In this document: positions 7,020-64,000 of the stretch, piece by piece
How positions within the stretch are numbered: position 1 is the stretch's first letter
Layout of the letters: every line of letters starts with the position of its first letter
Program-made: the position numbers and the translations under genes
Origin: Macrostomum hystrix
Lineage: Eukaryota; Animalia; Platyhelminthes
Assembly (NCBI GenBank): GCA_950097015.1
Contig: CATNEN010000001.1
Coordinates: forward strand, 930,001 to 994,000
Reading direction: 5' to 3'
DNA length: 64,000 nt
The notes under the pieces: generated by a model
The model's input: the letters and a program-made list of their open reading frames with translations, nothing else
Databases searched by the model: none
What the model was told of the DNA's origin: nothing

Positions 7020-7760
7020 ATATGTATATGTTAAGGTATTTTCGCGAAAATACTGCTATGCTATTAAACAAAGGTAGTTGTCGGTATTTTTGCAAAAGTT
7101 ATTAAAGTAGGTTATATGCGTGGCTATATGTTAAGGTATTTTCGCGAAAATACTGCTATGCTATTAAACAAAGGTAGTTGGCGGTATTTTTGCAAAAGTT
7201 CTTGAAGTTGTGTGCGTGACTATATCTTAAGGTATTTTCGCGAAAATACTGCTATGCTATTAAACGCAGGTAGTAAAGGTAGTTTGTGGTATTTTTGCAA
7301 AAGTTATTAAAGTAGTGTGCATGGCTACATCTTAAGGTATTTTCGCGAAAATACTGCTATGCTATTAAACAAAGGTAGTTGGCGGTATTTTTGCATAAGT
7401 TATTAAATTAGGTTATATGCGTGGCTATATCTTAAGGTATTTTCGCGAAAATACTGCTATGCTATTAAACAAAGGTAGTTGGCGGTATTTTTGCAAAAGT
7501 TATTAAATTAGGTTATATGCGTGGCTATATGTTAAGGTATTTTCGCGAAAATACTGCTATGCTATTAAACAAAGGTAGTTGGCGGTATTTTTGCAAAAGT
7601 TCTTGAAGTTGTGTGCGTGGCTATATCTTAAGGTATTTTCGCGAAAATACATGCATATTATTAGACTAAGTATCTTGTACATTTTTAACCATAGACATAT
7701 TTAGTATTTCTGAAAATTGCCAAGAGTCATGAGTGCATTTTTTTCGCGAAAAGACTATAT
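7020..7760. repeat. Palindrome array 1: 7 units of about 100 bp, each with GTATTTTCGCGAAAATAC and TTTTGCAAAA
   Basis: Palindrome cores at about 7036, 7136, 7232, 7338, 7437, 7537 and 7633; spacer sequences are nearly identical. Confidence 0.95.
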
Positions 7761-8094
7761 ATTATCTATATATTGTATTGAATACCTGTGAATGAAAAAT
7801 AATGACAGTTTTTTTTGCAAAAATACTAACGATACGATGATGAACATATTTTTGCGAAAGAACATGTTCTAAAACAAATACAAACTGCGAAATTGCTTTG
7901 AGTACTAACATACAAACAATAATGCTTAACATAGTGCTGATGATTGTTGGTGATGGTATTTTCGCGAAAAGATTAGTGTATTTTCAATCATTTACAACAC
8001 AACACATATGTAGATATCAAATAGTATTGATAATCAGAAGCTTTATAAAATCACTGTAATTTATCATAGTGAATGTATTTTTTATAATATCATT

Positions 8095-8868
8095 TCAAAC
8101 TTGTGCCTCCTCAATTGCAATCGCTACTGCTGCTGACGCTTCCGCCTCTTCAGCTGCGGCATACAATAGGCAGTCGTCAGCTGGGTCAAATGTACAGCTA
8201 CTGGCTGTCATCGCTGCTGCTGACGCCTCTGCCTCTTCAGCTGCGGCATACAATAGGCAGTCGTCAGCTGGATCAAATAAACAGCTACTGGCTGCCATCG
8301 CTGCCGCTGCTGCTGACGCCTCTGCCTCTTCAGCTGCGGCATACAATAGGCAGTCGTCAGCTGGGTCAAATAAGCAGCTACTGGCTGCCATCGCTGCCGC
8401 TGCTGCTGACGCCTCTGCCTCTTCAGCTGCGGCATACAATAGGCAGTCGTCAGCTGGGTCAAATAAGCAGCTACTGGCTGCCATCGCTGCCGCTGCTGCT
8501 GACGCCTCCGCCTCTTCAGCTGCGGCATACAAAAGCTCGTCATCAGCTGGGTCAAATAAGCAGCTACTGGCTGCCATCGCTGCCGCTGCTGCTGACGCCT
8601 CCGCCTCTTCAGCTGCGGCATATAAAAGCTCGTCGTCAGCTGAGTCTAAGCAATTGGCTGCCATCGCCGCTTCGACCTCTTCAGCTACGGCGTATAACAA
8701 ATGGTCGTCTGCCAGGCCGAATACAAAACTGTATGTTGAATTGTATGTTTCATCATACCCGTAGTCATCATAGCCTGGCTCTTCATTCAGCTCAACGTCA
8801 TCGTCGTGACAGTTTGATGTCTCCGCATCGTTTAGAGTTGGCGCTGATGATGATGGTGATGCAGGCAT
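8095..8868 (-). CDS. Element gene 1: acidic Ala-rich protein with 7 tandem DDxLLYAAAEEAE motifs (93-bp unit)
   Basis: ATG-initiated 257-aa ORF; homolog at 45030-45839 keeps the start, the frame and the motif count, with only in-frame indels. Confidence 0.7.
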   Translation of the reverse strand: MPASPSSSAPTLNDAETSNCHDDDVELNEEPGYDDYGYDETYNSTYSFVFGLADDHLLYAVAEEVEAAMAANCLDSADDELLYAAAEEAEASAAAAAMAASSCLFDPADDELLYAAAEEAEASAAAAAMAASSCLFDPADDCLLYAAAEEAEASAAAAAMAASSCLFDPADDCLLYAAAEEAEASAAAAAMAASSCLFDPADDCLLYAAAEEAEASAAAMTASSCTFDPADDCLLYAAAEEAEASAAVAIAIEEAQV

Positions 8869-9105
8869 GGCGAGACAATGGGGGTAGTATTTAAAATGCT
8901 TAACTTGTTTAATTTACTTAATTAATTGTCCAAAGTTTAAACTGCATTGACTGCAGCATATTCTTAATAACATAAGATTATTAGCAAGCTGGTTACCATA
9001 GACTAGCGATCGGGTTTTTTAGTTATTTTCTTTACTAAGGTAAGTGGCGTAACTTATTTACACATTTTAGATTATTAATTATTGTTTCAAATAAAAAACT
9101 ACAAC

Positions 9106-9564
9106 ATGTCATCCCTGGGTGGGTGGCACAATGGCGGAGATCGAGATCGAGATATCGACAGAGAGGATCACAACTCTGGCAACGACAAACCGATCTCGTG
9201 CCCTACCGTCAGTAGCAGCACGGATGTCGTGATTGGCACTGAGCGGCGTCGACGAAGGCACAGTTCGGATAGTAGTTCAGACTCCGATTTTGCTATTCTG
9301 CCTTCACGTCAACGTGTTCAGTACGTATTGCATCGTCCAGGTGTCGTGCGCATTTACAATAAGAGATTTGGAATTGTGAACGCCAATCCGACACGTGATT
9401 TAGCCGGCCAATTGCAACTGCCGCAGCATGCGCAAGTGACCGATATACAGTCACCAATTATAAGCAGCAGCAGCAGCAACAGTAACAATGGCGGCACTGG
9501 CACTGAAAGAGAGCGCGGCGATGCCAATCGTGCTGCAAATAACCCAGATTTGAATGACATGTAG
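9106..9564 (+). CDS. Element gene 2: small protein with RRRRRH basic patch, unknown function
   Basis: ATG at 9106, divergent from gene 1; homologs at about 46070-46560 and 60146-60234. Confidence 0.5.
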   Translation: MSSLGGWHNGGDRDRDIDREDHNSGNDKPISCPTVSSSTDVVIGTERRRRRHSSDSSSDSDFAILPSRQRVQYVLHRPGVVRIYNKRFGIVNANPTRDLAGQLQLPQHAQVTDIQSPIISSSSSNSNNGGTGTERERGDANRAANNPDLNDM

Positions 9565-10089
9565 CAATTGTTTTGTTAAGCACTGTGTTAAGCACTGTTT
9601 CCATTGCTTATAATGAAATTAATTAACTGATTAATATAATTAGAAGTTTCATGTATTTGATTCATACATCAGAGTATTTAAAGTCGACAGTTCATGATGC
9701 CTGCAAATGTTTTAAAGTACTTTTATATACACTAGCTCTCGTTCACCTTCACGTGGTATATTCAAAGCATAAGAGTTTGCCGTCACTATTGACAATATAT
9801 TGTCGCGTTTACCATTAATCATAATCAGACGACTGATGAGATCAGTCAGTAATAAAATATTAATACGCGAACACAGATGTGTGCAGGTAGTCAACCGGTA
9901 ATTATTAATACGGTTTTTATTAAATTTCACCAATACATATAGAGTATAAATATATATAGAATTTCATTGGTTGAACAAATAATCGTGCCATTCTACAATT
10001 AGTCTGATTTGCAAAGTCGCGAGAGAAAAAATAAACGTGTAAACTATAATACATAAAATTCTGCATATAAATTCTGTATTTTACAGCAT

Positions 10090-10470
10090 TCATTGTTCGA
10101 TGTACCCGTAGCGAACTCCATGTACGATGAGCTGGAGTTCAGCTTGGGCGTCCTCAAAAAGCTCTAGCACTTCGATGATGTCTTGTGCTTCATCCTCTCT
10201 TATACCAGTCACGAACAAGACAGCCATATAGTCTTCTGCTGACCGGTGCTGTTGCAGCCATTGTTGAGTGCGCCGTAATAATAAGCATAACTCATTAGCG
10301 CTATACTCAGCATTTGGAACACCGCGCTGCAAACTAGGTAGCTGCTCGAAGCACCCTCGATGCGCTATGAACCGGCCAATGCAATCTATGCGACAGCTGA
10401 GAAAGAGTTGAAATATGTGCGGGTGAAGATACATTTGCACTAACTGCATCTGATGGGCAATGAATGACAT
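10090..10470 (-). CDS. Element gene 3: small predicted alpha-helical protein (this copy has a short C-terminal deletion)
   Basis: Close copies at 47042-47414 and 60630-61064; diverged paralog at 25608-26027 shares RG..EQL..LQR..P.AE, WL.QH, HG..Y and the IEQ* end. Confidence 0.7.
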   Translation of the reverse strand: MSFIAHQMQLVQMYLHPHIFQLFLSCRIDCIGRFIAHRGCFEQLPSLQRGVPNAEYSANELCLLLRRTQQWLQQHRSAEDYMAVLFVTGIREDEAQDIIEVLELFEDAQAELQLIVHGVRYGYIEQ

Positions 10471-10718: not shown

Positions 10719-11101
10719 ATGTCTACTTTCCCATTATTCCCGGCGGCGTTCCGGCACTACGTACTGGCGTCAGCCGCCGCCGAGTTAGAAGACGCAATGA
10801 GATCAACCATGGAGGTGGCAATGGAGGTAGCGGCGGCGGAAGCCTGGACGCCGGAACGGCGCCGGGCTGAAGAAAATATGACAGCCGCTATACGGCGGGT
10901 CCGGGCGGCCATGTTACGCATGGCCCGGGCCCGTCGTATAGCGGCAGGGCTGGATCCATATGTGAGTAGTAGATTTTGATTCCTTTCATTTGAATATTTA
11001 TGAACACATCTGCATTGTAACATCTAAGCTACTAAAGGAAACCTAACAAAATAAATGAAACCTAAAACCCATCTTTCATCCCGCAGCCGGGTGTCCTATG
11101 A
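10719..11101 (+). CDS. Element gene 4: about 85-aa helical Ala/Arg-rich protein, 2 exons (10719-10961, 11087-11101)
   Basis: Phase-0 donor TAT|GTGAGT and acceptor CGCAG|CCGGGTGTCCTATGA (PGVL*); the same intron position is kept in copies at 47.7-48.0 and 61.4-61.7 kb. Confidence 0.65.
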
Positions 11102-11479
11102 GAACCAGAGAACCTGGTTCAACACCAACAACACCAGCCGATCTGAGACATTCAATAGTTTCTCTTTGATAACTTTACCTCCTTTGTTATCTTACTGTCA
11201 ATACTGATTGGTCATACATCTCTGATACTGATACTGAAACGGATACATAAATACATCAAAACAATAAAACTGATTAAATGATTGAATGATTAAATTATTC
11301 ATGCTAATCTCGTCAATACGTGTTATGAATCGTTCTGTTATTTAATTACGTCTATTATTAACATTTGTGCGACAATAAGAACTCACTAACTGACAAGCAA
11401 AAAGAAACGAATTTTCGAGGTGCATTATTCCTTGTACATTATTGTACATTATTCAGCCATATAAGTTAGTTGGATAAGT

Positions 11480-11980
11480 TTGAAAAAGTAAAGTACAAAC
11501 GACGAATAAATTATTATACACTTTCGTATCGCTAGATATAAGATGTTACAAGATGCACTTTTAAAACGTGCAGACTATAGGTATGTAGTGCATTAAATTG
11601 TGCGTATTTTACCAAAGACATGTCTGCTTGGTACAGCTCGATTTTTCGCTATTTTTTATGTTCTTCGCATCCAAATTTTTCTTTCGAAAATACAGTTAGA
11701 TGTTTTTGGCCGTAGACACAAAAAACGGCTGCATATAATTCATATTGTATGCAGTATTTTTGCAAAAGTTCTTTAAGTAGCGTGGCCATATCTATGGTAT
11801 TTTCGCGAATATAGCCAGACATTTCATCTATAATTAGTATTTGCGCACTGCCAAAAACTTTTTCGCGAAAGTACATACGTATTCTTAAGTCAAAACGGCT
11901 ATGATCGTTGACTACTTGAGATCTGTGCATATTGTGCCAGTGGTAAAAAGGTAAGAAGGCTCTTGTGGAAGACAGTATCA
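11480..11980. repeat. Conserved non-coding block of the element family
   Basis: Aligns by eye with about 20150-20630 and 62030-62400, and partly with about 48600-48660; contains TTTTCGCGAA and TTTTGCAAAA sites. Confidence 0.8.
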
Positions 11981-11994
11981 TTAGCCATCGTTAC

Positions 11995-12858: not shown

Positions 12859-14352
12859 TCAATTGCCGCACAGACATTGTCGCGTCTTGATCAATCGGCC
12901 GTGTCTTGACACTGTCGTAGTCAATATATTGTGTGTGCATATACAATACGAGCGTCTAGATGCATGCAAAGCATCAGTCGCAGGTATAGTCGATTGCGAT
13001 GACTGCACATCACTTATTGACATTGCGACATCGTCGTCAAGGTCGGCGGTCAGAACCAATTCTGCTGCGGCATCGGCATCTCCTTGCGGCACTGTCACAT
13101 CAGATAGCTGTTCATCAGAATCGTTGTTGACATCAGCAATGATGATCTCCATTGCGACATCAAACATGTCATCGATGTGACTTGCTTCGGAATGGGCAGC
13201 GAAATCCGATCCAGCAGCAGCAGCAACACAATCCGTATTGGTGGACAGAAATTGCATAGCGGCAGGTTGCATCAAGTCGAGCAGAATCTGCGCCATTTCA
13301 ATGTCATCACCGTGACCGGATGATGTACCAATACACACTGACTGCGTGCTGACATTGGCTTCGATGGAAACATCGGTCACACCGTTTTGTGCACTGACAC
13401 CAACTGTCGCTGTTGTTACTCTTGGCGCACAGACAGGAATAAAAACAGGTAGCGGCACCGGAACGAAATACGGCACCTCGACAGTTGGAATCGGCAACAT
13501 AGGCATCGCTGGTGATCCGATTGGCTCAATTTGCAACATTGGCATTGATGGCGATGGTACTGGCGAGTGATCCGATTGGATTGTTTCTGCTGCTGCTTCA
13601 ATCGCATTGTGATTAAGCGGAGTAGATGTACAAATTGGATGCCGTACTGATCCAATTGACACGCTGTCCGCTTGGCTCACATGTTCAGCAGGCTCGTCAG
13701 TACTTGTTGCATAGATGATGCCTGATTCAGCTGCGCTATCTTCTATGATGATAGTTTCTGCTGGCTGCTCTGCTGCTGACTGCTCTGCTGATGGCTGCTC
13801 TGCTGCTGGCTGCTCTGCTGCTGGCTGCTCTGCTACTGGCTGCTCTGCTACTGGCTGCTCTGCTGCTGGCTGCTCTGCTGCTGGCAGTCGACGGGCAATG
13901 TAGCGCTCGTGCATATAGTCGACAATCTCGCCGACCACAGCTGGTAGTGGATCCAGTTGTTCAAGCTGGACCACTTCGCCCATTGCCGCTGCTCCCGCCA
14001 CTGCCACTGGCTGAGCTGGTTGGCCACCGACGCGACGCTGCGGATTCCGCTTACATCTATATAGATGATGCAACATGTTGGACGTTATTTTGTTGCAATG
14101 CGAACACGCTAGCACACGTCCACCGGCAGCGACATCCACACCAGCCCGCTGTAGTTGCAGCATCTTCCAGACGGCACTTCCACGCTCCTTAACCGACGCG
14201 AATAGCGATGGCCTTTGACCAACAGGTAGGACTGTCCAGTCAAATTCGGCATGGACAGCTTTATGCGCCTCTATAAAATGTCTTCGCATCATATTGGCGC
14301 GGATTTGCTGGCCGCAGAAATGGCAGAAGCGGAGTCCGTTGTTGTCTTCCAT
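12859..14352 (-). CDS. Element gene 5: N-terminal double zinc finger (C2H2 plus C2HC) followed by a long acidic, disordered region with (AEQPA)n and a PV-rich motif
   Basis: 497-aa ATG ORF; CHFC-x11-H-x4-H and CSHC...H...CKRNP; VPYFVPVPLPVFIPV; near-identical copy at 23419-24708. Confidence 0.8.
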   Translation of the reverse strand: MEDNNGLRFCHFCGQQIRANMMRRHFIEAHKAVHAEFDWTVLPVGQRPSLFASVKERGSAVWKMLQLQRAGVDVAAGGRVLACSHCNKITSNMLHHLYRCKRNPQRRVGGQPAQPVAVAGAAAMGEVVQLEQLDPLPAVVGEIVDYMHERYIARRLPAAEQPAAEQPVAEQPVAEQPAAEQPAAEQPSAEQSAAEQPAETIIIEDSAAESGIIYATSTDEPAEHVSQADSVSIGSVRHPICTSTPLNHNAIEAAAETIQSDHSPVPSPSMPMLQIEPIGSPAMPMLPIPTVEVPYFVPVPLPVFIPVCAPRVTTATVGVSAQNGVTDVSIEANVSTQSVCIGTSSGHGDDIEMAQILLDLMQPAAMQFLSTNTDCVAAAAGSDFAAHSEASHIDDMFDVAMEIIIADVNNDSDEQLSDVTVPQGDADAAAELVLTADLDDDVAMSISDVQSSQSTIPATDALHASRRSYCICTHNILTTTVSRHGRLIKTRQCLCGN

Positions 14353-14539: not shown

Positions 14540-15145
14540 TAGTATTTTCGCGAAAATACTGATATGCTCTATAAACAAAGGTAAGGGCAGTATTTTTGCA
14601 AAAGTTCTTAAAGTAGTATGCATGATTACATCTTTGGTATTTTCGCGAAAATACTGCTATGCTATTAAACAAAGGTAGTTGGCGGTATTTTTGCGAAAAT
14701 TCTTAATGTAGTGTGCATGGCTACATATTAAGGTATTTTCGCGAAAATACTGCTATGCTATTAAACAAAGGTAGTTGGCGGTATTTTTGCAAAAGTTCTT
14801 AAAGTAGTGTGCATGGCTACATCTTAAGGTATTTTCGCGAAAAGACTGCTATCCTATTAAACGCAGGTAGTAAAGGTAGTTTGCGGTATTTTTGCAAAAG
14901 TTATTAAAGTAGTGTGCATGGCTACATCTTAAGGTATTTTCGCGAAAAGACTGCTATGCTATTAAACAAAGGTAGTTGGCGGTATTTTTGCAAAAGTTCT
15001 TAAAGTAGTGTGCATGATTACATCTTTAGTATTTTCGCGAAAATACTGCTATGCTATTAAACAAAGGTAGTTGGCGGTATTTTTGCAAAAGTTATTAAAG
15101 TAAGTAGTGTGCATGGCTGCATATTATGGTATTTTCGCGAATTTA
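14540..15145. repeat. Palindrome array 2 (about 7 units of 96-105 bp)
   Basis: Same unit as array 1; lies between the 5' end of gene 5 and the 3' end of the recombinase gene. Confidence 0.95.
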
Positions 15146-15542: not shown

Positions 15543-18500
15543 TCAGATGTCCAGTCTAGTTCTCGAACTGATCAGGCGCCCAGATCGCGTCCTGTATTCC
15601 GTTCGACGAACCATGAGTAGCTCAGAATCCGAGCTGGTCTCATTGTCATTGCTGACGTGCTGTTGTTCACCATCATCACCTTCTTCGTCGATATCGTCGT
15701 GAACGTTGCCTTGTCCAGCCGATGCTCCAAACATCGGCGGTTGACTAAGACTGCGTCGTCTAGACGATGTAGACGAAATAGGCGATGGTGTTGCTGAATC
15801 GATGGCCGGCTTTGTCGACTCGGTGTTGTCCGTTGTTGAACATCTAGGACTAACCGTAGCGGGTCGCATTGTCGACATTCGAGGTCGCTTCTTGTCAGTG
15901 GCCTTGCAAATGGACGACCGTCGAACGCGTCGCTTGCGTGTGCGTTGACTATGTGGCATCACAATGTCATCAGCAGGTAGAGGAGATGCAGCCGATGAAT
16001 TGGTTGCGTCCAGATCAACGCTACAGGCGGCAGAGCGACGACGCTTCGTGTCGTTTTCGGCTGTTGGATGTCGTTGATGTCGACGATCAAGTGGCCGATT
16101 GTGACAGAATGTCTCGAAGCATCCTCTGACGTCGTCGGCGACCATCAGATTGGCCTGCTGTTTGGCCAGGCGTCCATACGCATTCACGACACAGTTGCGC
16201 GATGTGTCGTACAGAGGCACCAGCTGGTCTAGCTTGTCGGGATGCGCGTGCACATAGGCCGACAGTACATTTCGACGACCATCGCCCATGCGATAGGGCC
16301 GATCGATGACCAACTCGGCGCCCTGCTTGACAAGCGTGCTGAAACTTGTCGAGTCACGCTGCTTGCCACGATGCGTAGGAAACAGCAGACATTTGCCTGG
16401 CCTGACATGGATGTTGCACTCGGCGAAGTATGGCAATAGAAAGTTGTCTATCCATTGCAGTAGACATTCGCCGACTTTGCGTGGCGCAGTCCAGCTTGCA
16501 CCTTTACCACAACCGTCCTTTTTGTGTGCCACTTCGGTAGGCGGCAGGACTGTGACAATGGTGGAGGACGTTGATACGCCGCTATTGAGTGCAGCATCCA
16601 AATAGCAACGCCGAATCGCGACCCATGGACGTAGTCGATTGGCATGGACAATTGCTGCACAGAAGAAGGCCAGTTCACGCGTGATCGGCATAATAAATGT
16701 ATTCCATTTGCCGACGACGTTGGCCATTCGACGTGCACATTGTCCAATGCGACCCCAGTAGCCCTTCACGGGTAGATGAGACCACGAATGTTTGGCGACC
16801 ATATCAATCAGGCAGTCTAGCCGGTTGTGAATGATGCGCCATTCGTCAGCGGTCAGGAACTTATCCGTGTAGGACAGCTGGCGTTCGTCATCGCGCAGGT
16901 GATAGATATTCTCTTGCCGCTGACGAATCAATCCAATGCAAGCCTGTACATGTTAAAGGGTTATGAAAGAGAAAGTACATGCAGTAGCTTCTACAATTGT
17001 TCGTGATATATCAACTAACATAGTATACAATATGCGACACAACAACACTGCTCACCATGATTGATTCGATGCGGCTAGTCAACAGACCAGATACTGCAGT
17101 CTGATGATAGAGAATACCATCTTTGAGCGGGTCAGGACAGGCAGGCAATTCTGACGCGGCCTTGACAATGTCGGCATGCACGTTGGCAAACAATCCATCT
17201 GGTGGCGAGGTCAATTGGAACGCGTTCATAACACTAGGAGCACCGAAGTCGTTGTTGGCTGCTAGAAACTTCTTCGCGCCGCTCAATATGTTATGAAGCT
17301 CGTTCATTCGCTGTCCAACAGTCGATGGTTTCCAGATATGGCGCTTCACCATCTCGTCCAAATCGAATTGGATGCGCCCTGGATTGATGAACCACATCTC
17401 GACTGTGACATTGATTGCGTGTAGGAGACGACTAGTTGTAGCATGATAGTTCCGCTGGATTGCTTTCCTACGACTAACATGCGATGCGTTCTCTTCTACA
17501 CAGCAATGACCCTTGAACCAGATGTCGCCGACATTGTCTAGTTGCTTGTACATGTGTTCAGATGCAACGTGGTAGTCTGGGCCGTCGAAAACAACAAGCC
17601 GAGACTTCTTGTGCCTCCGTTGCAATACAAGCTCCTCTTCACTGACAGAATCATCAGTATTTTCCACGTCAGATTTAGAGGTCTGAGTCTCTGCTTGTCG
17701 CTGACTGACAGCATTGGTGACTCCGACCGGAACATAGTCTGACGTATACTGGAGAATTGCTTCTGTCAGATTGACCAGATTCTGCAAGCTAGTACACACG
17801 CGCGGATGCTCAGCGTTGTGGGCTTTCTGCAGAATCTCGTTGAGGCCGGCCGCATTCAGACGCAGTCCATTGATAAACTCTGTTTGACAGGAAAGTTATA
17901 AATATTTGTTGATTATTTTTTTGTCTTTATGTGTAAATTTAAAAATGTAAAGGCATGTACAACAATATTTTAGACCACTTACTGATCGCTGCCACATTGT
18001 CGTTGGCATTATCGAATTCTGGCATCGTACTCGTTTCGTTTTGCAGTCGCTCGATGTCGTGACTGACAATATCGGCCGTGTAAGATGGTCCGGCACGATC
18101 GAAACTAGCCAACACCGGTGCTACTAAAGTAGACGGTGTGACAGACGATGCACTGCTGATAATGCGTACAGCATTGGACTGTCCAGCAGAAGACGATCCC
18201 GCAGAAGACGCTAACACGACAATAGGCGGCTCAATGTTTGCACCCGCGTCTATCGAATCAGACGAAGAGTCGTCGCTGTCACTTGACGAACGGGTTGCAT
18301 TTGCTGCCTCTGTAATTGCCGGTTTACGCTTGCATGTCCTGGCAATGTGTTTACTGAGATGCTGAACACCTTTGCCACAGTATTGACAATAAGACAAAGA
18401 TGCATCGGATCCATCCCGACGTAACCGGATGATCTTCAATACGGTCTTTGCCTTGACGTCATACGATGCAGTCGCTGCGGGTCGTTGAACCTCCGGGATC

Positions 18501-18604
18501 GTGCTCCAATCGAAAGCCGAGACGAAGTCTGAATGATTTGTAAGAAAGTGCCTTACAACATTCGTCTTCCAAAATGAAGCTTTGCAGACTGGGCACGTAT
18601 CCAT
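15543..18604 (-). CDS. Element gene 6: zinc-finger plus divergent tyrosine recombinase, 3 exons (18604-17983, 17879-17056, 16943-15543), about 948 aa
   Basis: Donors GTAAGT and GTGAG and acceptors AACAG and TACAG join three ORFs in frame (phase 1, then phase 0). YR-like order: WKPSTV core-binding-like helix, NRLRP (R), AHK (K), LLFPTHRG, GDGRR, YDTS, NAY (Y). Confidence 0.75.
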
Positions 18605-19192
18605 TTCGCTGGTTAATATTTAATTTAGCTGTTCCAAAGTGCTTATGACAGAAGAACGTTTACACAGATTTGTAAGCGAGCGCGCTCGGCTTCTGACTTA
18701 AGCTGCTATCGTGACCCGTACGACAGTTTAATCACATAAACTATCATTCAAGGTTGGTCTATGGCGAAAAAGCATAATATCGAACTCATAATATATTTAA
18801 CGTTGCTATATTGTCTACTCATAGTAGAGTAGGTAGTTTCGAACAGAAAATGAACATAAACACGAATAATTATTTGATTTCTGAATGTCTATATGTTGAA
18901 AAGGCACTTAAATTATTGTTGATTATTCCAGAGGTATTTTCGCGAAAGTACATATATATTCTCAAACAAAGGTTAATGCAGTCTTTTTGCGAAAATACTT
19001 TTGTGTTAATATGATTACTCTTTCTAGTGGTATTTTCGCGAAAAGACATATGTGTCCCATATAAAAGTAAAGGCATAATCAAAAGAAGGTAAATGCCGTA
19101 AACGTTAATAATAATGGGGGTTCACAAAAAGTAGTTTGGTAGTAATTAGTAGTAAATTACTAGCATATTTTTTTAAATAGAGAAAAATGCGT

Positions 19193-19262
19193 AGTGCCGA
19201 CTGGGATTCGAACCCGAGCCACTGCTACTAAAAAGGAATGCTTTAGACCTGCATGCCAGATC
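19193..19262 (-). pseudogene. tRNA-derived sequence (tRNA pseudogene or SINE head)
   Basis: Minus strand has a degenerate A-box TGGCATGCAGG and a perfect T-arm/B-box CTCGGGTTCGAATCCCAG; the anticodon arm is not well formed. Confidence 0.5.
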
Positions 19263-21134
19263 ACTTGCAATTGAAATGTGTGTTATCTTGTTATTTATAT
19301 TGATTTTCTTTCGGATGTTGGATTTTTAATGATTTTTGTCTGCAAATAGTGGAATCTTGATCACGTTTTCAATATTTTCTAACAGAACAATAAGATTTAT
19401 TGAGAGAATATAGATAGTACTGCTGATTATTACTACTATTGTTAGTATTTTCGCGAAATACGGATACGTATTTAATGCTCACACCATCTACCATCTGTCA
19501 GTGTCTCCTCTGGTTCTGGTTCTGTTCCTTTATGCCGGTGCCAAGTCTATACCAGTGGCGGTAATAATGCCCTGTTAAGCATTAAAACTTCTGTCTTTAG
19601 TCAGTAGTCTGCAGCGTTTTGTGCAATTATTATTATTCATAATCTTCATAAACATGATAAAATTGCACGTATTGTTCAACCGTTTTCCTACAATTGATAA
19701 TCAGATTACTTAATTCCTGTTTACGTGTTGACATTCTCATCTTAAATTAACAACAATTCGTTTAAAATCACTGCCTAGCTTATGTCGAAAACTTTCTCTA
19801 AAAATATACAAATTTCAAAGGCGCTGAATGCCGCCATATGCAAAAGTAATTCTGACTGCCTGCCTATATTCTGCAGTTCAGTATGCTTTAAAATGTTAAA
19901 AATTCAAAACAGTTAATAAAAATTGGCCTTTTCTCTTCGTTTGTACATTTTTACTATTGCTTTTTTAAGCAAAATATACTACTTTTACTCAATGAGGGCT
20001 AATGCCCTCAAAAATAAATAAGAAAAAAAATAAGAAAAATGACGGAGAACTCGGAGAACTTAAAAAATGTAAATGAAAAATGACAAATAAATTATTATAC
20101 GCTTGTGCCAAGATAAAGAAAGTTAAGTTTATACGAAGTTGCTCATGTAAAAAACATTAATAAAAACGGATTAGTTTTGAAAAAGTAAAGTACAAACGAC
20201 AAAAAATTATTACACACTTTCGTATCGCTATAAGATATTCCAAGATGCACTATTAAAACGTGCAGACTATAGGTATGTAGTGCATTAAATTGTGTGTATT
20301 TTAACATAGACATATCTGCTTGGTACAGCTCGATTTTTCGCGATTTTTTTATTCGTATCCACATTTTTTCTTTCGAAAATACGGTCAGACGTTGTTGGCC
20401 ATAGACACAAAAACGACTGCATATAATTCATATTGTATGCAGTATTTTTGCAAAAGTTCTTTAAGTAGCGTGGCTATACCTATGGTATTTTCGCGAATAT
20501 AGCCAGACATTTCATCTATAATTAGTATTTGCGCACTGCCAAACGAAACGAAAACAAGTTGACTACTTGAGATCTGTGCATAATGTGGCAGTGGTAAAAA
20601 GGTAAGAAGGCTCTTATGGAAGACAGCATCGTCACACCGGACTGCTATACAGTATAGCAGTATACAGTATACACTAGCATTTGTAGTGTAGTGAGTGGGA
20701 GTTACTGTGACATGGTTCACATACTGCGACATGTCACATAATGGTTAATATCAATTTGCAATTTAACGTTGTACATCGCATAGCTGCTCGTGCCAATGTT
20801 AGATTGACGTTGTACGTCTGGTTAAATTCGCGCATTTTGCGCAACGCAAAATACAGCAGTACTTTGCATAGACGTACAATGTCAATCTAACATTGCCCAT
20901 GCAAGTCTCAACCTCATGAGTGTTTCCTGGTATGTCCTCATTCTCCCACTGTCTTTCGACTATCTTTTGTATTTTTAAATGTTTCATACAGTTTTTGTAT
21001 GCCAATTTTATAAAAACGACTGCGACCAAGTGACTGTCCTTTCAAGCGCAGCTACAGTACATGTCAAATTAGCATTAATAAATAAATAATAAATATAAAT
21101 AATTTAGTGTTTGTTATTTGTATAATCATTAATA

Positions 21135-24904: not shown

Positions 24905-25320
24905 TATAGTATTTTCGCGAAAATACTGATATGCTCTATAAACAAAGGTAAGGGCAGTATTTTTGCAAAAGTTATTAAAGTAGTGTGCATGGCTACATCT
25001 TATGGTATTTTCGCGAAAATACTGTTATGCTATTAAAAAAGGTAGTTGGCGGTATTTTGGCAAAAGTTCTTAAAGTAGTGTGCATGGCTACATCTTATGG
25101 TATTTTCGCGAAAATACTGATATGCTATTAAACAAAGGTAGTTGGCGGTATTTTTGCAAATGTTATTAAAGTAGGTAGTGTGCATGGCTACATCTTATGG
25201 TATTTTCGCGAAAATACTGATATGCTATTAAACAAAGGTAGTTGGCGGTATTTTTGCAAAAGTTCTTAAAGTAGTGTGCATGGCTACATCTTATGGTATT
25301 GTCGCGAATGCAGATACGCG
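24905..25320. repeat. Palindrome array 3 (about 5 units)
   Basis: Same GTATTTTCGCGAAAATAC / TTTTGCAAAA unit, upstream of the second gene 5 copy. Confidence 0.93.
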
Positions 25321-51289: not shown

Positions 51290-51580
51290 CATAAAAATAC
51301 AAACAATAATGCTGTAACATAGTACGTCGTTGATTATTGTTGATGATTGTATTTTCGCGAAAAGACTACTGTATTTTCAATCATTTACAACACAACACCA
51401 ATATGTATATCAAATAGTTATGATAATCAGTAGCTTTATATAATAACTGCATAATGAATCATATAGTGATTGTATTATTTTACATATATAATCTGTATTT
51501 TAAATTCTGACGTATGACGCCTCTGTCTCTTCAGCTGCGGCATACAGAAGCTCGTCGTCAACTGCATGGGTCTATGCAAT
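51290..51580 (-). pseudogene. Third, fragmentary copy of the gene 1 3' end and downstream flank
   Basis: Matches about 7905-8180, including GACGCCTCTG.CTCTTCAGCTGCGGCATAC. Confidence 0.75.
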
Positions 51581-52289
51581 TTCTATATATAGTGTGACGA
51601 TGTCATTTATTTTGTAGTCGTATTTTGTCGTTATATTTATAGTTTCTATGTGAGTTGCATCTTTGTATTTCTAGTAAAGTATATTAATGTATAATTTCTC
51701 CTATTTATCTATATTAAGTCTATAATAGTACATATATTATTCATTATTAATGCAGCATTGAGAGTCCGTCTATCATATACTATATTCCATATATCTGCGC
51801 GCCGTGTTTAAAATCTGAATCGCTGCGTATTTCACGCCTCGGCTTGGCCGGTTACCAGTGGTGTTGGGCGCATAGTGGGCACTAGAGCTTAATTAAGACC
51901 TTTCTACTAAGACAAGACAATCTAAATAAACTCGCAGGTTAGGACCGACATTTTAATAAATAACTAGACAGTCCATCTCCGCTACACCAATCTAACGTCA
52001 TAAGAAGCTGTTAATAATTTTTGTTAAGCAGACTACTAAATACAATAGTCCATATTCGGAGTCCTCGAGTGTTACAATAGTAATACGCATTCAATCGAAT
52101 GTATATCCAAAGTGTCAAAGTATTGATGAATACTATTCATGAAGGTATTTTCAGAAAAAAATATAACGTATTCTAAATGGAAAGTAAATTTAATATTTCT
52201 GCGAAAAGATTGATATGTTCTTAAACGAAGGTAACGGCAGTATTTTTGCAAAACTTCTTGAAGTACAAACGACTAATAAATTATTATTA

Positions 52290-59221: not shown

Positions 59222-60145
59222 ACTACCGCGTCGTCGCCACGCATGCCCAACATACTGGGAGACTTTCTACGGTCTTCCAGAATGAAATCCTTGCCATCAG
59301 CTCCTGTGCCGCAGAGCTGAATGCCAGGAATACGAGAGGAGAGACTATCATCATCCACTCTGACAGCCAAGCGGCCTTACAAGCCCTTTGCCGCACCACC
59401 ACGTGCTCCCGGACAGTCGCTGACTGTGCCCGGCAACTCAACCTCCTGGCCCGTAACAACACGGTCAGGCTGAGCTGGATCCCAGGGCATGCGGGCTTCC
59501 CAGGGAACGAGCTAGCGGATACCCTTGCAAAGCAAGGTGGCTCTGGCTCTCTCCTGGGTCCTGCTCCCCTGGTCCCGATCCCCATCACGGTCATCAACCG
59601 CCTCATTGATGACTGGGCTGAGTCCCTCCACAGGGACAGATGGGCGGGCACCCAGAACTGTCGGCAATCTCGTGCCGCAGTTCCGCGCCCGTCTCGCAGG
59701 CTTAGGAATATCCTTTTGAACCAAAACCGGAAGGATATCCGCGCCCTCGCCATGACCCTCACGGGCCACGGCTACCTCGCTAGGCACTGTTTCCTCCGGG
59801 GCGACCTTGAGAGTGAACTCTGCCCATTCTGTGAGTACGACAACGAAGATGCTGAGCACTTTGTGTGTCACTGCCCTTTCTTTAACAGAGACCGGCTACG
59901 CTACCTCGGGCCCAACCCGTCTATGGACGAGATCTGCCAGCCCGACAGCATACCACGGCTCGTCCAGTTCCTCCGGGCAACAAGACGAGCCACGTTCTTC
60001 ACTACGGAAGACGACGCTGCAGGACGGACCGGCGGACCACCCTGACTGTCTGCCTGTCTGCGGGCCTACAGGGGTTAGCGGTATGGGCGATCCTCGCCTC
60101 CCCGCTGCGTCCATGGACCACCCTGCAGCTAAGTCAAAGTAAGTC
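59222..60145 (+). mobile_element. 5'-truncated non-LTR retrotransposon (I/Loa-like) 3' end: RNase H, CCHC finger and AAGTC-repeat tail
   Basis: TVFQNEILAI, HSDSQAAL, WIPGHAGFPGNELADTLAK, LTGHG, CPFC..EDAEHFVCHC; ends TAAGTCAAAGTAAGTC. Confidence 0.9.
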
Positions 60146-60629
60146 AACAGCAGCAACAATGGCGGCACTGGCACTGAAAGCGAGCGCGACAATGCCAATC
60201 GTGCTGCCAATAACCCAGATTTGAATGACATGTAGCAATTCTTTTGTTGCCATTAGTTATAATGAAATTAATGAACTGATTAATATAATTAAAAGTTGTT
60301 ATTTAATACACATCTGAGTATTCAAAGTCGACAGTGAATGATGCCTGAAAATGTTTTAAACTACTTTTACATACACTAGCTCTCAATAACAAATATTAAT
60401 ACGCGAACACAGATGTGTGAAGCTAGTCAATCGGTTATTATTAAATCGGTTATTATTAAATTTCACCAATATATTTATACTCCATACATATATATATATA
60501 CAATTTCATTATTTGAACAAATAATCGTGTTATTCTTCAATTAGTCTGATTTGCAATGTCGCAAGAGCAAAAATAAACGTGTAAACTATATTACATAACA
60601 TTTTGTATAAATTCTGTATTTTACAGCAT

Positions 60630-61064
60630 TCATTGTTCGATCAAATTTTGCCGTTCCCGAAGCCTCTCTCTTAGACGTTCCCTTTGTTGGATAGCCATCC
60701 AGTAGCGAACTCCATGTATGATGAGCTGGAGTTCAGCTTGGGCGTCCTCAAAAAGCTCTAGCACTTCGATAATGTCTTGTGCTTCATCCTCTCTTATACC
60801 AGTCACGAACAAGACAGCCTTATAGTCTTCTGCTGACCGGTGCTGTTGCAGCCATTCTTGAGTGCGCCGTAATAATAAGCATAACTCATTAGCGCTATAC
60901 TCAGCATTTGGAAAACCGCGCTGCAAACTAGGTAGCTGCTCGAAGCACCCTCGATGCGCAATGAACCGGCCAATGCAATCTATGCGACAGCTGAGAAAGA
61001 GTTAAAATACGTGAGGGTGAAGATACATTTGCGCGAACTGCATCTGATGGGCAATGAACGACAT
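60630..61064 (-). pseudogene. Element gene 3 copy with full C-terminus but an early nonsense codon
   Basis: ATG at 61064; CAA changed to TAA near 61003; remainder open to WMAIQQRERLRERLRERQNLIEQ*. Confidence 0.7.
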
Positions 61065-61360
61065 GTTCAGTCAGGAAATGTAAATCAAGCCAGCCTAAAC
61101 ATTAGAAAAATAGTTAAGTTATAAAAAAATTAAACTTTAATTAAAGTCCCCATTGAGTATACTTTAGCAAACACAGGTGAGTTAGTCCACAGACAAATCA
61201 AATGAATACAGGCCAGTCTGGGTATTAAGAACAAGAAATCTTTCTCGGCCAAGAAATCAGCCCACAATCAACGCCACAGCAGCAGCAGCAGCAGAAGTAT
61301 TTCAACAAATAATATTATCAGTTTTATTAGCAAAGAAAATTTCTAGTAGCAAAGAAAATT

Positions 61361-61664
61361 ATGAACAGCAGCAGCAACTTTCCCTCACATCCCGCCGTGT
61401 TCCGGGAACACGTACTGGAAGCGCTATTCGGGCAGCGAGTGATGCAGCTACAGCAGTGGCGGCAGCGGAGGCTGGGACGCCGGGAAGTCGCGGGAAGGAG
61501 GCAGTTCTCGCCGTGCATAGCTGCGGGGCTGGATACTTATGTGAGTAGTAACTTTGACTTTTATTTTCATTTAAATATTTATTAACTTATATGATAACAT
61601 CTAAGCTAACAAACTAAATAAAACCTAAAACCTATCTTTCATACTGCAGCAGGGTGTATTATGA
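61361..61664 (+). pseudogene. Degenerate element gene 4 copy
   Basis: FP.HPAVFREHVL and IAAGLDTY|GTGAGT donor retained; exon 2 reads QGVL*; middle is frameshifted or deleted. Confidence 0.55.
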
Positions 61665-62889
61665 GCCGGTGTCCTGTCTCGTGATATTTGGATGGATTCG
61701 GAATTGCTGATGTGCGATGATATCACGATGATCTGCGATGATATCACGTCCTATGAGCCGGTGTCCTATGAGCCTATAATTTACATTGATAACATAATTC
61801 TCGATAATTAATAATTAATAAAATAAATAAATCTACAGCGCAAGTTTAATCGTTATCTTGTTATCTAAATACATAAGTTCTTATCTTGGTTATCTATTTC
61901 ATCATTTAAATAATATGAACTGACTGGCGGTTATGTGGTGTACATTGGCGATGACGCTTACTACAATAGTGACGTAATCGTAATCGATCAGTCTGATATA
62001 TAATTTCAAGTAAAGTTTATACAAGTTTCTCATGTAAAAAATCATAATTAAAAACGGATTCGTTTAAAAAAGTAAAGTACGCACGACTAATAAATTATTA
62101 TACGCTTACGTCTTGCTAGATATGCCAAGATAAACAATTAAAACATGCAAACTGGGTATGTAGTGCATAAAATCGTGCGTATTTTAACATAGACATATCT
62201 GCTTGGTACAGCTCGATTTTTCGCGATTTTTTTCTTCGTATCGAAATTTTTCCTTTTGAAAATACAGTCAGACGTTTTTGGTCATAGACACAAAAAAACG
62301 TCTGCCTATAAATTATATTGTATGCAGTATTTTTGCAAAAGTTCTTTAAGTAGCGTGGCTATATCTTATGTTATTTTCGCGAATGCAGATACGTATTCTC
62401 ATAAAAAGTGGCTTGTACTTTTTTTAACATGGACACATTTAGTTCCTAAAATGTTGAAAGGGGGGGTCTGGTCCAGCCAAGCCCCAGCCAAGGCCCCAGC
62501 AAGACCAAAACGGACCTCTGTTGTACGTGTATTCTAAATCGGTGCGAGTTTTCCCCAGAGACGACGACCCTAATTGGGATAGCCTATATAAAATGTTCTA
62601 TATTTAGAAATACACTACGGAGATCAAAAAAAGGTCATTCGGCTTTTTGCGCGCTACTATTTACAGCCATAGACGTGTGCAAGAAATACACTAAGGAGAT
62701 AAAAAATGTATTTTCAGCTACGCATGCGCCTGCTGTAAGTAGTAGCTATAGCAGTGCAGAAACTGGCTAGTCAGTGAGTTGCAGCTAGAAGAAGCTGCAA
62801 ATTTGGATTTCGGCTTTGGTTTTTGGCTTTGGATGCTTCAGTTTCTTCGAACTGATCTCAACTGAAAAGCACTCTGGTACCATTCATTG

Positions 62890-63372
62890 ACATGTTACTT
62901 TCGCGAAAACATAATTGGAGGATAGTGAAATCGAGGGAGAGTGAAGAGAGGATCAGATCGAAGGAATAGGAAGATAGGGAGGGAGGGGAGGAAAGCGAAG
63001 GTAGGGGAGGAAGCTAGGACAGAGTGAAGGGAGGATATGAGAGTGAGACACCACCACCTACCCAACCACCTGCACTCTGCATCCACCCACCCAAATTCGT
63101 ACGACTGATTCATTGTACTGATGTGTTACTTTTGCGAAAACATATTTGGAGGATAGTACAGGAGGAAATTGATAGAGAGGGAGAGTGAATAGAGGATCAG
63201 GGTAGATCGAAGAAAGGAAGAGGAGGAAAGCGAAGGTAGGGGAGGAAGCTAGGACAGAGTGAAGGGAGGATATGAGAGTGAGACAACATGCACCACCTAC
63301 CCAACCTGCACCTGCACTCTGCATCCACCCACCCAACACCACACACCACACCACACCACACCACACCACACC
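62890..63372. repeat. About 235-bp purine-rich tandem duplication followed by (CACCA)n
   Basis: 62891-63090 recurs at about 63123-63335. Confidence 0.85.
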
Positions 63373-63494
63373 CTAGCTGCAGCACTCCAATTATAAGAGT
63401 TTATGGACTTAGAGAATTTATAAACGTAAATTCTCGACCGTCCCAAGGCTTAAATAGTGTAGCGGGATCGGGGCGGGATAGAGGGAGCCAGTTA

Positions 63495-63888
63495 GTATAT
63501 ACTCTAAAGAAAGGTGCGCGCTGTACACTTTCGCTGGAGGCAATATGACGGAGATTATATCTAGATCGGGCTTGATGACGACTAATAATTACTAGATGAC
63601 CGAAAATGCATGGTGTTTCTATTTTTAGCCTAAGGCGCACCTTTCTTAAGAGTATATACTGACTGACTGGCTTGCGTGCCCCATAGACTTCAATAGGCTG
63701 CCATTTAAATACACACGAGCCAGCTTGTATATACTCTTAAGAAAGGTGCGCCTTAAGCTAAAAATAGAATCGAATCGCCCGGGGTTCAGCCAGCCCGGCT
63801 ATACTAGCCCCCATATGCAGACGACGTCGAGTAGCGAAGTCGAGTAGCGAAAAAACAGCTCGCGCACCTTTCTTTAGAGTATATATAT
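63495..63888. repeat. Four alternating-orientation copies of GTATATACTCT(A/T)AAGAAAGGTGCGC
   Basis: Forward at 63495 and 63727, reverse ending at 63659 and about 63886; inner pair forms a near-perfect 43-bp inverted repeat. Confidence 0.88.
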
Positions 63889-63972
63889 ACCTGCCTGTAT
63901 AGCATTTACTACTCCACCAGCCACACCAACTAAAAGCTCTGGGGACGGTCGAAAATTTTATCACTGACTTTA

Positions 63973-64000
63973 TGCTGATGTTCCTGAACCTGCGCCAACC
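63973..64000 (+). other. Start of another copy or fragment of the Rep-like gene 7
   Basis: 27 of 28 nt identical to 49701-49728. Confidence 0.6.

Follow-up and report, generated by a model that had tools for sequence, protein, structure and literature searches.

A candidate multicopy, capsid-less, plasmid-like element with a probable tyrosine recombinase and an SF3 helicase in Macrostomum hystrix

The window, the whole stretch of 64,000 nucleotides analysed here, contains four rearranged blocks of related DNA, for which we see an even chance that they are copies of one multicopy family, a capsid-less integrative plasmid-like element of ~14-15 kb. The first-pass annotation had proposed a virus-like family of mobile DNA that carries an SF3 helicase and is present in several copies, and the repeated modules, the contig depth and the links between flanks bear this out. 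The element would excise and integrate by means of a predicted tyrosine recombinase (gene 6), which may recombine at short sites, and its replication is proposed to use the SF3 helicase of gene 7, possibly loaded at the palindrome arrays, on a double-stranded circular form. Host polymerases would be used, since no polymerase or primase is seen, and movement in the manner of an integrating plasmid is likely because no virus coat is recognisable. The arrays may be bound by a zinc-finger domain common to genes 5 and 6, gene 5 being a putative non-catalytic regulator. The composite order would be array, genes 1-4, non-coding (NC) block, gene 7, gene 5, array and gene 6, and the clustering of copies in the same orientation could have arisen by repeated integration beside earlier copies. 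Young copies are also present in a second species, Macrostomum lignano. Only tentatively can the element be regarded as an intron-bearing, capsid-less integrative episome of animals that combines a zinc-finger tyrosine recombinase with a papillomavirus-style initiator, replicates from its arrays and is still active in Macrostomum; it is a possibility of the same order that such an episome would bridge Cryptons, CRESS viruses and polinton-like viruses (PLVs).

Block layout and palindrome arrays

The TTTTCGCGAAAA-bearing element DNA lies at 7.0-21.1, 22.8-29.1, 44.8-52.3 and 60.1-64 kb, and the four blocks have in common the small genes 1-4, the NC block, gene 5 and an 18-bp palindrome. Identity is 86.5% between 7866-11101 and 44836-48023, 84% between 9855-10707 and 60391-61296, 94% between 12398-14946 and 22819-25308, and 98.7% between 15468-17036 and the inverted 29087-27525. 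The modules had been described as recurring three times in conserved order; the recurrence stands (matches of 84-98.7%), while the blocks are four and the order is only partly kept. In A1 it runs array, genes 1-4, NC block, gene 5, array, gene 6; in A2, NC block, gene 5, array, diverged gene 3, array, inverted gene-6 piece; in block B, genes 1-4, end of the NC block, gene 7, and the gene-1 end again; and in block C, genes 2-4, gene-5 flank, NC block and, where the window ends, 28 bp from gene 7. The features are the following, with the strand in brackets where one applies.

7025..7670: palindrome array 1, ~6.3 units of 96-105 bp; left edge of the cluster, next to a truncated Crypton ORF
8095..8868 (-): gene 1, copy A1; acidic, 31-aa repeats, no family
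9106..9564 (+): gene 2, copy A1; small, Ser/Arg-rich, no family
10090..10470 (-): gene 3, copy A1; small protein, no homologue found beyond the window
10719..11101 (+): gene 4, copy A1; small, Ala/Arg-rich, GT-AG intron at 10962-11086
11472..11979: NC block, palindrome variant at its end; the end matches DNA upstream of gene 7
12859..14352 (-): gene 5; zinc-finger-like domain at the N-terminus, followed by an extended low-complexity tail
14542..15141: palindrome array 2, ~6 units, upstream of gene 5 and 194 bp from its start
15543..16943 (-): gene 6 exon 3; probable tyrosine-recombinase catalytic domain and low-complexity tail
17056..17879 (-): gene 6 exon 2; conserved middle region, by its position likely the core DNA-binding domain
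17983..18604 (-): gene 6 exon 1; zinc-finger-like domain
18934..19460: cluster of decayed palindromes lying upstream of gene 6
20120..21134: block A2; NC block, post-gene-7-like DNA (20951-21015) and gene-5 flank, without gene 7
23419..24708 (-): gene 5, second copy, with an earlier stop than the first
24905..25308: palindrome array 3
25608..26027 (-): diverged gene-3 paralogue, 43% identity to copy A1
26355..26886: palindrome array 4 and gene-6 3' flank
27525..29087 (+): inverted gene-6 fragment; part of intron 2 and exon 3, without exons 1-2, 98.7% identity
44836..48023: block B genes 1-4, order and orientation as in A1; gene 3 copy seemingly disrupted
48445..48700: palindrome variants plus the end of the NC block, preceding gene 7
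48779..50188 (+): gene 7 exon 1; acidic/Gln-rich part, then an ordered ~210-aa domain, HUH not supported
50339..50972 (+): gene 7 exon 2 (predicted); SF3 helicase motifs
51294..51564: repeat of the gene-1 end region, matching 7907-8183 and 44888-45038; block B is back at its own start
52171..52287: decayed array unit and NC-block start, interrupted by a BEL/Pao retrotransposon
60145..61664: block C, left part; gene 2 end, gene 3, diverged gene 4
61870..62443: block C, right part; gene-5 3' flank, then NC block
63973..64000 (+): internal gene 7 fragment, matching 49701-49728 and running off the window

A Crypton at 5.6-7.0 kb and a recombinase-PWWP fragment at 29.4-30.5 kb are palindrome-free and were treated as separate elements. 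No Rfam family and no tRNA was found.

The confinement of the motifs to element DNA, claimed previously against the intervening transposable elements, was confirmed. TTTTCGCGAAAA occurs 24 times in the window (mean of the Markov null, 0.03) and TTTTGCAAAA 20 times (null, 0.8); 24 of 24 and 19 of 20 copies, respectively, fall inside the 31.7 kb of element DNA, the sole outside copy of TTTTGCAAAA, at 42041, corresponding to chance expectation. The underlying motif is a perfect 18-bp palindrome, GTATTTTCGCGAAAATAC, present in 16 exact copies and in 29 with at most two mismatches (0.01 expected), mostly within four arrays with units of 95-105 bp. Copies also precede four genes (5, 6, 7 and the paralogue of gene 3), at upstream distances of 77-334 bp. 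Its TTTTCGCG core we speculatively liken to cell-cycle (E2F/SCB-type) sites. A role of the arrays as hairpin origins gained no clear support: one of seven array units folded clearly better than its shuffles (z -5.0), the other six giving weak or no signal (z -0.07 to -2.4). The typical layout of recombinase sites, with arms of 11-13 bp and a spacer of 6-8 bp, is absent from the arrays.

Coding capacity

Genes 2, 5 and 6 are under purifying selection, with dN/dS values of 0.26 (gene 2, A1 vs copy B), 0.21 (gene 5, first vs second copy) and 0.20 (gene 6, exon-3 copy vs inverted fragment). The value for gene 1 is 0.47 (A1 vs copy B), and the gene 3 copies A, B and C, at 0.56, 1.33 and 0.72, are devoid of clear constraint; no homologue of gene 3 was found outside the window among 7999 candidates. 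The GT-AG intron of gene 4 occupies an identical position in copies A, B and C. The N-terminal zinc-finger-like domains of genes 5 and 6 are 31% identical over 96 aa (E 1e-15).

The expectation that the genes are spliced was borne out by gene 6, in which two GT-AG introns (103 and 112 nt) join the exons into one open frame of 948 aa kept under purifying selection. Its C-terminal part is probably a tyrosine recombinase of very divergent sequence, an assignment with moderate support from sequence comparison. Five of 30 matches in the Atlas comparison carry integrase families, with scores of 0.92-0.93; gene 6 and its matches have 139-140 of 256 features in common, the same-family norm being 170. 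Profile alignment with phage integrases is in register across the LFP, RH-type and Tyr motifs, and its score was reached by 0/25 and 0/40 shuffles in two settings; in two others 8/60 and 13/30 shuffles reached it, which is not significant. The catalytic residues R, K, R and Y are present in gene 6 of the window, with both His positions replaced. Among its relatives K, the second R and Y are kept in every row that covers them, and the first Arg position is occupied by Leu in M. lignano and by Gln in P0003. Replacement of this Arg in the M. lignano and Logan relatives makes recombinase activity uncertain. Of the zinc-finger tyrosine recombinase originally announced, the zinc-finger-like part holds, the recombinase is probable and its activity is in doubt.

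The PDB sequence searches, taken together, yielded weak ATPase P-loop matches and nothing else. Gene 6 had no match in Pfam, PHROGs, NCBIfam or PDB. It matches neither PF12012 nor PF00589, both of which are carried by the adjacent Crypton, and a Crypton-type recombinase was rejected, the Crypton and gene-6 profiles aligning at shuffle level (7/15 shuffles). The single-sequence AlphaFold model of the catalytic part has a pLDDT of 33.7, too low for fold comparison. The recombinase family has four matches among 1.84 billion proteins, and similar elements may hide among unclassified invertebrate repeats because it is nearly invisible to standard profiles.

The C-terminus of gene 7 has good support, from its sequence, as a CRESS-Rep-like SF3 helicase. 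Comparison with 89 CRESS Rep helicase domains gave a probability of 92.6 (E 4.5e-7) and a profile score of 41 against a shuffle maximum of 16, with PF00910 below cut-off (E 0.0015). The SF3 motifs comprise Walker A GPSGVGKT, Walker B MFIDE, B', C and an Arg-finger-like RR. The gene had been called Rep-like, and of that description the helicase half stands and the HUH nickase half is not supported: the local HUH alignment, which falls on motif II (H-L-D), scores 12.0 against a shuffle mean of 12.1, 39/40 shuffles reach the global score, and the region has no Pfam match. The middle domain (single-sequence AlphaFold pLDDT 33.1) might presumably be a nickase-dead origin-binding domain such as those of papillomavirus E1 and polyomavirus large T, which is speculative. 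The N-terminal part has no homologue among 7988 candidates of 190-608 aa, its Atlas matches (0.89-0.90, DUF3626), with recognition below threshold, being treated as noise; a second overlapping frame was looked for in exon 1 without success. Searches of IMG/VR with a Rep motif returned 0 and 1 loci, the one a chance match in a tailed phage. Two of 12 Walker-A loci, themselves selected by motif, are Rep-like, with weak alignment over the whole SF3 domain.

Copies, relatives and the linkage of genes 6 and 7

Close relatives were found only in M. lignano, and none in IMG/VR, JGI metagenomes, phages or plasmids. Gene 6 is represented there by seven near-identical entries with ~43% identity to the window gene, mislabelled as Ras-GEF, C2H2 or GPCR protein; one of the M. 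lignano proteins, P0008, aligns to all three exons (exon 1, 34%, E 3e-24; exon 2, 34%). The gene 7 relative is 47% identical.

In the matching DNA run X1, single contigs have a depth of 816 over gene 6 and 844 over gene 7, compared with 72 and 72.6 in the two window-identical contigs. Since contig depth is not copy number and other locus-like X1 contigs reach 100-220, ~4-12 copies are estimated. A Tc1 end lies inside gene 6 of another copy in this run (joint 16218-21133), and therefore further distinct copies exist; the gene-5 flank/NC junction of block C also recurs there as a joint. Contigs of run X4 end at exon boundaries predicted for genes 6 and 7, while those of X1 continue through. Majority gene-7 contigs depart from the window sequence at 48770 and 50976, and the flanks of block B may therefore be unrepresentative of the family. 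Short pieces of gene 6 occur in the small-share runs X9 and X10, which were set aside as evidence of expression or habitat.

As noted earlier, genes 6 and 7 lie in different copies, and no contiguous copy or contig with both was found in the window or among the run contigs. Element ends, a target site, an empty site and a circle junction were likewise not encountered. Their linkage had been proposed from shared flanking modules, and the new comparisons fit one element: the NC-block end matches DNA upstream of gene 7 (score 88, shuffle maximum 37), DNA that follows gene 7 reappears between the NC block and gene 5 in A2 (score 70, shuffle maximum 55), and the depths are nearly equal. The common flanks place both genes in one order of ~14.5 kb. 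A divergent promoter common to the two genes was rejected, the 20-bp match scoring 32 against a shuffle maximum of 33.

The missing contiguous copy would also be expected if there were two separate or cooperating replicons, as in a two-segment element, namely a helicase unit of 6.5 kb (genes 1-4 and 7), copied head to tail, and a recombinase unit of 12 kb (genes 1-6), with genes 1-4, NC block and palindrome common to both. Block B has the form of such a 6.5-kb unit, in which gene 7 is followed by the gene-1 end without genes 5 and 6; segments at 1:1 would be equally compatible with equal depth, and the flatworm element PEVE is described, in excerpts of PMC3198968, with a 'small segment'. We nevertheless consider this arrangement unlikely, given the post-gene-7 DNA in A2, which fits a deletion from one longer unit, and the co-occurrence of gene-5 flank, NC block and gene-7 piece in block C.

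Comparison with known elements

The self-replicating integrative DNA known from animals consists mainly of Mavericks/Polintons and Helitrons. The element DNA contains no ORF for pPolB or RVE integrase, and no long inverted repeat bounds the blocks; no Pif1 or Helitron family match was obtained, the gene-7 helicase being SF3-like; and RT-associated domains, as in DIRS/Ngaro, are confined to nested retrotransposons that lie apart from the motif-bearing DNA. The yeast 2-micron plasmid, with its REP proteins and STB array, resembles the proposed element as a eukaryotic selfish circle with a tyrosine recombinase (FLP), small accessory genes and a repeat array, but is fungal, is not known to have a helicase of its own and is normally unintegrated.

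Cryptons are animal DNA elements with a tyrosine recombinase, no long terminal repeats seen and a proposed circular intermediate (PMC3212892, in excerpt). Their recombinase is the sole or principal gene, and 4-6-bp direct repeats mark their termini. The present element differs in its seven genes, SF3 helicase and palindrome arrays, gene 6 matching neither DUF3504 nor the neighbouring Crypton recombinase; the word helicase is absent from the Crypton paper (PMC3212892). CRESS Rep elements have a Rep-type SF3 helicase, and flatworms harbour virus-like elements, the planarian PEVE and PIVE, one extrachromosomal and one integrated, described in parts of PMC3198968 and PMC6186406 as parvovirus NS1- or papillomavirus E1-like; in contrast, here the HUH nickase is not supported, a probable recombinase is present and no capsid is seen. 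Transpovirons and other capsid-less modules also carry replication and integration genes without a morphogenetic module, but rely either on pPolB together with a DDE transposase or on AEP-SF3 by itself, and are bound to giant viruses or protists (10.64898/2026.10.13.758929, in excerpt).

The pairing of recombinase and SF3 helicase had been presented as novel, which was overstated: it is not new in itself because it is known from PLVs, which often swap pPolB and RVE for helicase fusions and tyrosine recombinases (excerpts of 10.64898/2026.06.19.733378 and 10.64898/2026.10.13.758929). PLVs and virophages (Polisuviricotina) resemble the element, in the same excerpts, in this pairing, a size of ~15 kb, tandem integration, small repeat arrays and mosaic copies, from which it differs by its spliceosomal introns, CRESS-Rep-like helicase and animal host. 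The blocks could accordingly be decayed endogenous polinton-like or related DNA viruses whose capsid and packaging genes were deleted or are too divergent; the ~14.5 kb composite is close to the 15 kb of small PLVs (10.64898/2026.06.19.733378, in part), and animal meldviruses with recombinase and primase-helicase exist. We judge this quite unlikely. Searches of window ORFs, in decayed copies and with Pfam, PHROGs and NCBIfam, libraries devoid of PLV-specific profiles, gave no major (double jelly-roll) or minor capsid and no A32-like ATPase; genes 1-7 likewise lack protease, pPolB, PolA and AEP matches, the N-terminal part of gene 7 giving no family match to pPolB or a PolA/AEP helicase fusion in single-sequence searches. 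Genes 1, 2, 4 and 5 are short or low-complexity, and no relatives were found in IMG/VR.

In the literature outside subscription journals, Repbase Reports and preprint supplements, no description of a capsid-less spliced animal recombinase-SF3 family was found, and the family is apparently undescribed. If the plasmid-like reading is true, it would provide a real case, and one in an animal, of the stand-alone modules for replication and integration that recent polisuvirus work has proposed; M. lignano is a transgenic laboratory model, in which circles, target sites and enzyme activity are directly testable.

It is very unlikely that the cluster is instead a host locus that arose from such an element by domestication and tandem amplification, its copies spread by segmental duplication and gene 6 acting as a non-catalytic DNA-binding protein like the DUF3504 genes. 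Introns, purifying selection, RNA-like contigs, the replacement of the first catalytic Arg among relatives and the precedent of domesticated Crypton recombinases agree with it, but gene 6 keeps the catalytic Tyr and second Arg, both lost in all DUF3504 genes (PMC3212892, in excerpt); gene 3 and the gene-7 middle domain have no cellular homologue among 7999 and 7988 candidates, respectively; and two species whose proteins differ by 57% each contain near-identical copies, which points to independent recent amplification.

Element blocks and palindrome arrays

Self-comparison of the window, with nested transposons taken out, revealed four blocks with common modules:

7025 to about 19460: block A1
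about 20050-29087: block A2, split by a Tc1-like element at 21130-22825
44836-52287: block B
60145-64000: block C

The first-pass annotation had claimed a conserved module order; only part of it is kept across the blocks, a segment at about 26.9-29.1 kb being inverted. The inverted part of A2 (27202-27375) and block C (62594-62746) have a stretch in common, in opposite orientation, which may represent an additional non-coding module. A hairy/E(spl)-type HLH gene piece, spliceosomal introns and numerous retro- and DNA transposons identify the window as animal DNA.

TTTTCGCGAAAA occurs 24 times in the window against a null mean of 0.03, and TTTTGCAAAA 20 times against 0.8. The motif had been said to be restricted to the element, and this holds, all 24 copies of the first and 19 of the 20 of the second lying within 31.7 kb of element DNA. 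Complete, the motif forms a perfect palindrome of 18 bp, with 16 copies exact and 29 near-exact. It is organised in arrays with a unit length of 95-105 bp, whose units hold additional inverted half-sites; lone copies precede gene 5, gene 6, gene 7 and a gene-3 paralogue, at 77-334 bp upstream. Single-strand hairpin folding of the array units is inconsistent (z of -5.0 in one unit and -0.07 to -2.4 in six), hence the arrays would be better read as double-strand binding arrays. Immediately ahead of the gene 7 fragment lies a small palindromic element (63485-63885) in which a 24-35-bp motif is repeated four times, its orientation alternating.

Genes of the element

The C-terminal exon of gene 7 contains Walker A, Walker B, B' and C motifs and an Arg-finger-like motif. 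Its match to PF00910 is sub-threshold (E 0.0015), and a profile built from 89 helicase domains of CRESS Reps is matched with probability 92.6 and E 4.5e-7, at a score of 41 versus a maximum of 16 over 25 shuffles, which gives good support to the SF3 helicase proposed initially. The 210-aa domain ahead of the helicase is protein-coding: 9 of 15 differences from the majority contig fall at third positions (P 0.03, counted on differences listed in 40 of 290 rows), an excess absent from the low-complexity part of the gene among the differences listed. No family, homologue or usable structure model was obtained for this domain in the searches. A Rep-like HUH nickase was not supported: the local alignment scored at shuffle level, though landing on motif II, and the global one was negative. 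By eye, motif II of the domain reads H-L-D, and a Tyr is missing from the place expected for motif III; it would fit a nickase-dead origin-binding domain, which we take only as a lead. The window copy of gene 7 shows about 4% divergence plus gaps relative to the majority contig. One candidate splice acceptor leads to an open frame, whereas the acceptor indicated by contig edges reaches a stop, so this copy may be broken.

Gene 6 has three exons separated by GT-AG introns:

18604-17983: exon 1
17879-17056: exon 2
16943-15543: exon 3

Spliced, they form a single open frame of 948 aa. The model is independently supported, because P0008, a 1084-aa Macrostomum lignano relative, aligns to exons 1, 2 and 3 at 34%, 34% and 43% identity. 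Exon 3 gave four matches among 1.84 billion representative proteins: two M. lignano clusters (seven near-identical entries), one Logan protein and one JGI protein. All named relatives of the element proteins are from M. lignano, at 34-47% identity, which makes another macrostomid flatworm the probable host; that of gene 7, the one found among 316 longer candidates, is a chimeric gene model (47%). The M. lignano entries P0001, P0002 and P0005-P0010 bear wrong labels (Ras-GEF, C2H2 or GPCR protein), and P0010 is a helicase piece fused to a receptor fragment. Exon 1 of gene 6 encodes a zinc-finger-like domain that is also present in gene 5 (31% over 96 aa, E 1e-15). A similar tail, S-R/G-R-L-I, closes each of the two proteins.

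The C-terminal half of gene 6 was compared with profiles of 55-58 phage integrases, with shuffles as the null. The alignment keeps the LFP, RH-type and terminal Tyr motifs in register; its score exceeded every shuffle in two settings (0/25 and 0/40 reached it) and was matched by shuffles in two others (8/60 and 13/30). Alignment rows covering K141, the second Arg and the Tyr retain these residues, both catalytic His positions are replaced, and the first-position Arg (NRLR) is replaced in M. lignano and in another relative, P0003. In the Atlas protein resource, 25 of 30 matches lacked a common family (best 0.96), and the other five, at 0.92-0.93, belonged to integrase families, the number of shared features being low (139-140 of 256). 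Pfam, PHROGs, NCBIfam and PDB gave no match, and structure prediction no usable fold. The tyrosine recombinase annotated at first finds support in two profile settings, the Atlas families and the retained residues, and none in the other two settings or the family libraries. In our judgement, gene 6 very probably has the tyrosine-recombinase fold, and its catalytic activity is somewhat favoured.

Genes 1-5 are each small or low-complexity and had no match of weight in the family profile libraries; general profiles, as distinct from PLV-specific ones, detected no capsid-, packaging ATPase- or polymerase-like gene among them. The gene 4 intron is at an identical place in three copies. Eight comparisons between copies gave dN/dS values of 0.20 for gene 6 (8 synonymous and 5 non-synonymous changes), 0.21 for gene 5, 0.26 for gene 2, 0.47 for gene 1 and 0.56, 1.33 and 0.72 among gene 3 copies, all on small counts, and 0.18 for gene 3 against a distant paralogue, where dS is saturated.

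Linkage, copies and possible transcripts

Genes 6 and 7 are each tied to genes 1-4 and the non-coding (NC) block. The end of NC has a counterpart in the DNA upstream of gene 7 (score 88 versus a shuffle maximum of 37), the AT-rich DNA after gene 7 recurs in A2, where NC lies on one side of it and the gene-5 flank on the other (70 versus 55), and A1 holds gene 5, array and gene 6 in one unbroken stretch. From these matches we infer a composite order of about 14.5 kb: array, genes 1-4, NC, gene 7, gene 5, array, gene 6. Against it, block B resumes at the gene-1 end straight after gene 7, majority gene 7 contigs depart from the window's flanks, and no contig among those examined spans both genes. 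The single element claimed earlier is favoured by the shared flanks and opposed by block B and the contigs; two cooperating replicons are an unlikely alternative.

Gene 6 is present in 11 sequencing runs of five studies, eight with at least half its words, and contigs were analysed in six of the 11. Run X1 includes contigs identical to the window and may come from the source strain. In it, one contig has a depth of 816 over 16744-18205 (gene 6) and one of 844 over 49421-50957 (gene 7), against 72 and 72.6 for two contigs identical to locus-specific DNA; most joints between separate window positions have depths of 63-100, and other locus-like contigs reach 100-220. Contig depth not being copy number, these values loosely point to some 4-12 homogeneous copies and a ratio of gene 6 to gene 7 close to 1:1. 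Other copies, revealed by joints, carry differing deletions and, within gene 6, the end of a Tc1.

In run X4, whose library label 'DNA?' is a guess, contigs end at predicted exon edges of gene 6 (16944, 17055 and 17983) and gene 7 (50190 and 50337), and the gene 7 intron contig has a depth of 10 versus 28-33. Both features hint at spliced transcripts. In X5, from a second study, depth also falls over the gene 7 intron, beside a skipped repeat. No splice joint was among those listed for the runs examined. An unrelated repeat at 51593-52076 in block B is also found inside a 9.8-kb X4 contig.

Relation to known systems and neighbouring elements

The most likely reading, at even chances, is a single capsid-less mobile element that gene 6 would integrate and excise and that would be replicated in circular form. 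Gene 7 would open the palindrome arrays, the zinc finger that gene 5 has in common with gene 6 being their obvious candidate binder, and host polymerases would then copy a double-stranded circle. The same-orientation cluster could have arisen by tandem integration, with deletion, inversion and invasion by transposons afterwards.

In the accessible text of 10.64898/2026.06.19.733378, the definition of polinton-like viruses (PLVs) rests on capsid and ATPase genes, and they often swap pPolB and RVE for helicase fusions and recombinases. The accessible text of 10.64898/2026.10.13.758929 correlates recombinases with PolA or AEP replicases, describes circovirus-Rep-like nickases in one virophage group and proposes capsid-less replication-integration modules. 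A decayed PLV would share such swaps, with the capsid genes gone, and is somewhat less likely than the paired replicons. A domesticated tandem locus is the least probable. The single element would work like a PLV replication-integration module minus the virus coat, its membership in any named family not being established. Cryptons combine a recombinase with short direct repeats, and a helicase is absent (accessible text of PMC3212892); flatworm PEVE and PIVE are parvo- or E1-like, with recombinases unmentioned in the accessible text of PMC3198968. The main text of a Macrostomum transposon paper contains neither Crypton nor tyrosine recombinase, and the literature searched, outside Repbase, Dfam and subscription journals, held no description of a gene 6/gene 7 family. 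The mobile-element family announced initially is real and apparently undescribed; a new class is doubtful.

A genuine Crypton, unlike gene 6, adjoins the cluster. Its 5' side is cut precisely at the start of palindrome array 1, and one of the two elements is inserted into the other. The neighbouring features are:

858-1343, + strand: fragment of a hairy/E(spl)-like HLH gene, separated from the cluster by 5.7 kb
1787-2999, - strand: two overlapping ORFs without Pfam match, resembling a decayed transposase-type gene
5626-7055, - strand: the Crypton-type recombinase, frameshifted, with DUF3504, QRICH1 and Phage_integrase matches and catalytic motifs present
11991-12070, 12170-12313, 20794-20895 and 41310-41415: short inverted-repeat (MITE-like) insertions
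21130-22825: Tc1/mariner-type element inserted in A2, carrying a DDE_3 transposase and inverted repeats of 160 bp (95%); other copies also have its end joined to exon 3 of gene 6
29380-30549, - strand: second recombinase-like gene, frameshifted, then a PWWP domain (PF00855, E 6e-7)
32100-37100: Gypsy-like pieces with a nested Tc1 ORF at 35245-35928
37570-38065 and 43100-43890: tandem repeats of 71 bp and 47/94 bp, with no relation to the element
52850-55450 and 55590-59100: two BEL/Pao elements (DUF5641) in opposite orientation
59203-60045: non-LTR RNase H end, cutting gene 2 of block C

The gene at 29380-30549 shows recombinase motifs by eye, with a profile test that is not significant (3/15 shuffles); it is a putative recombinase-chromatin-reader fusion, different from both the Crypton and gene 6.
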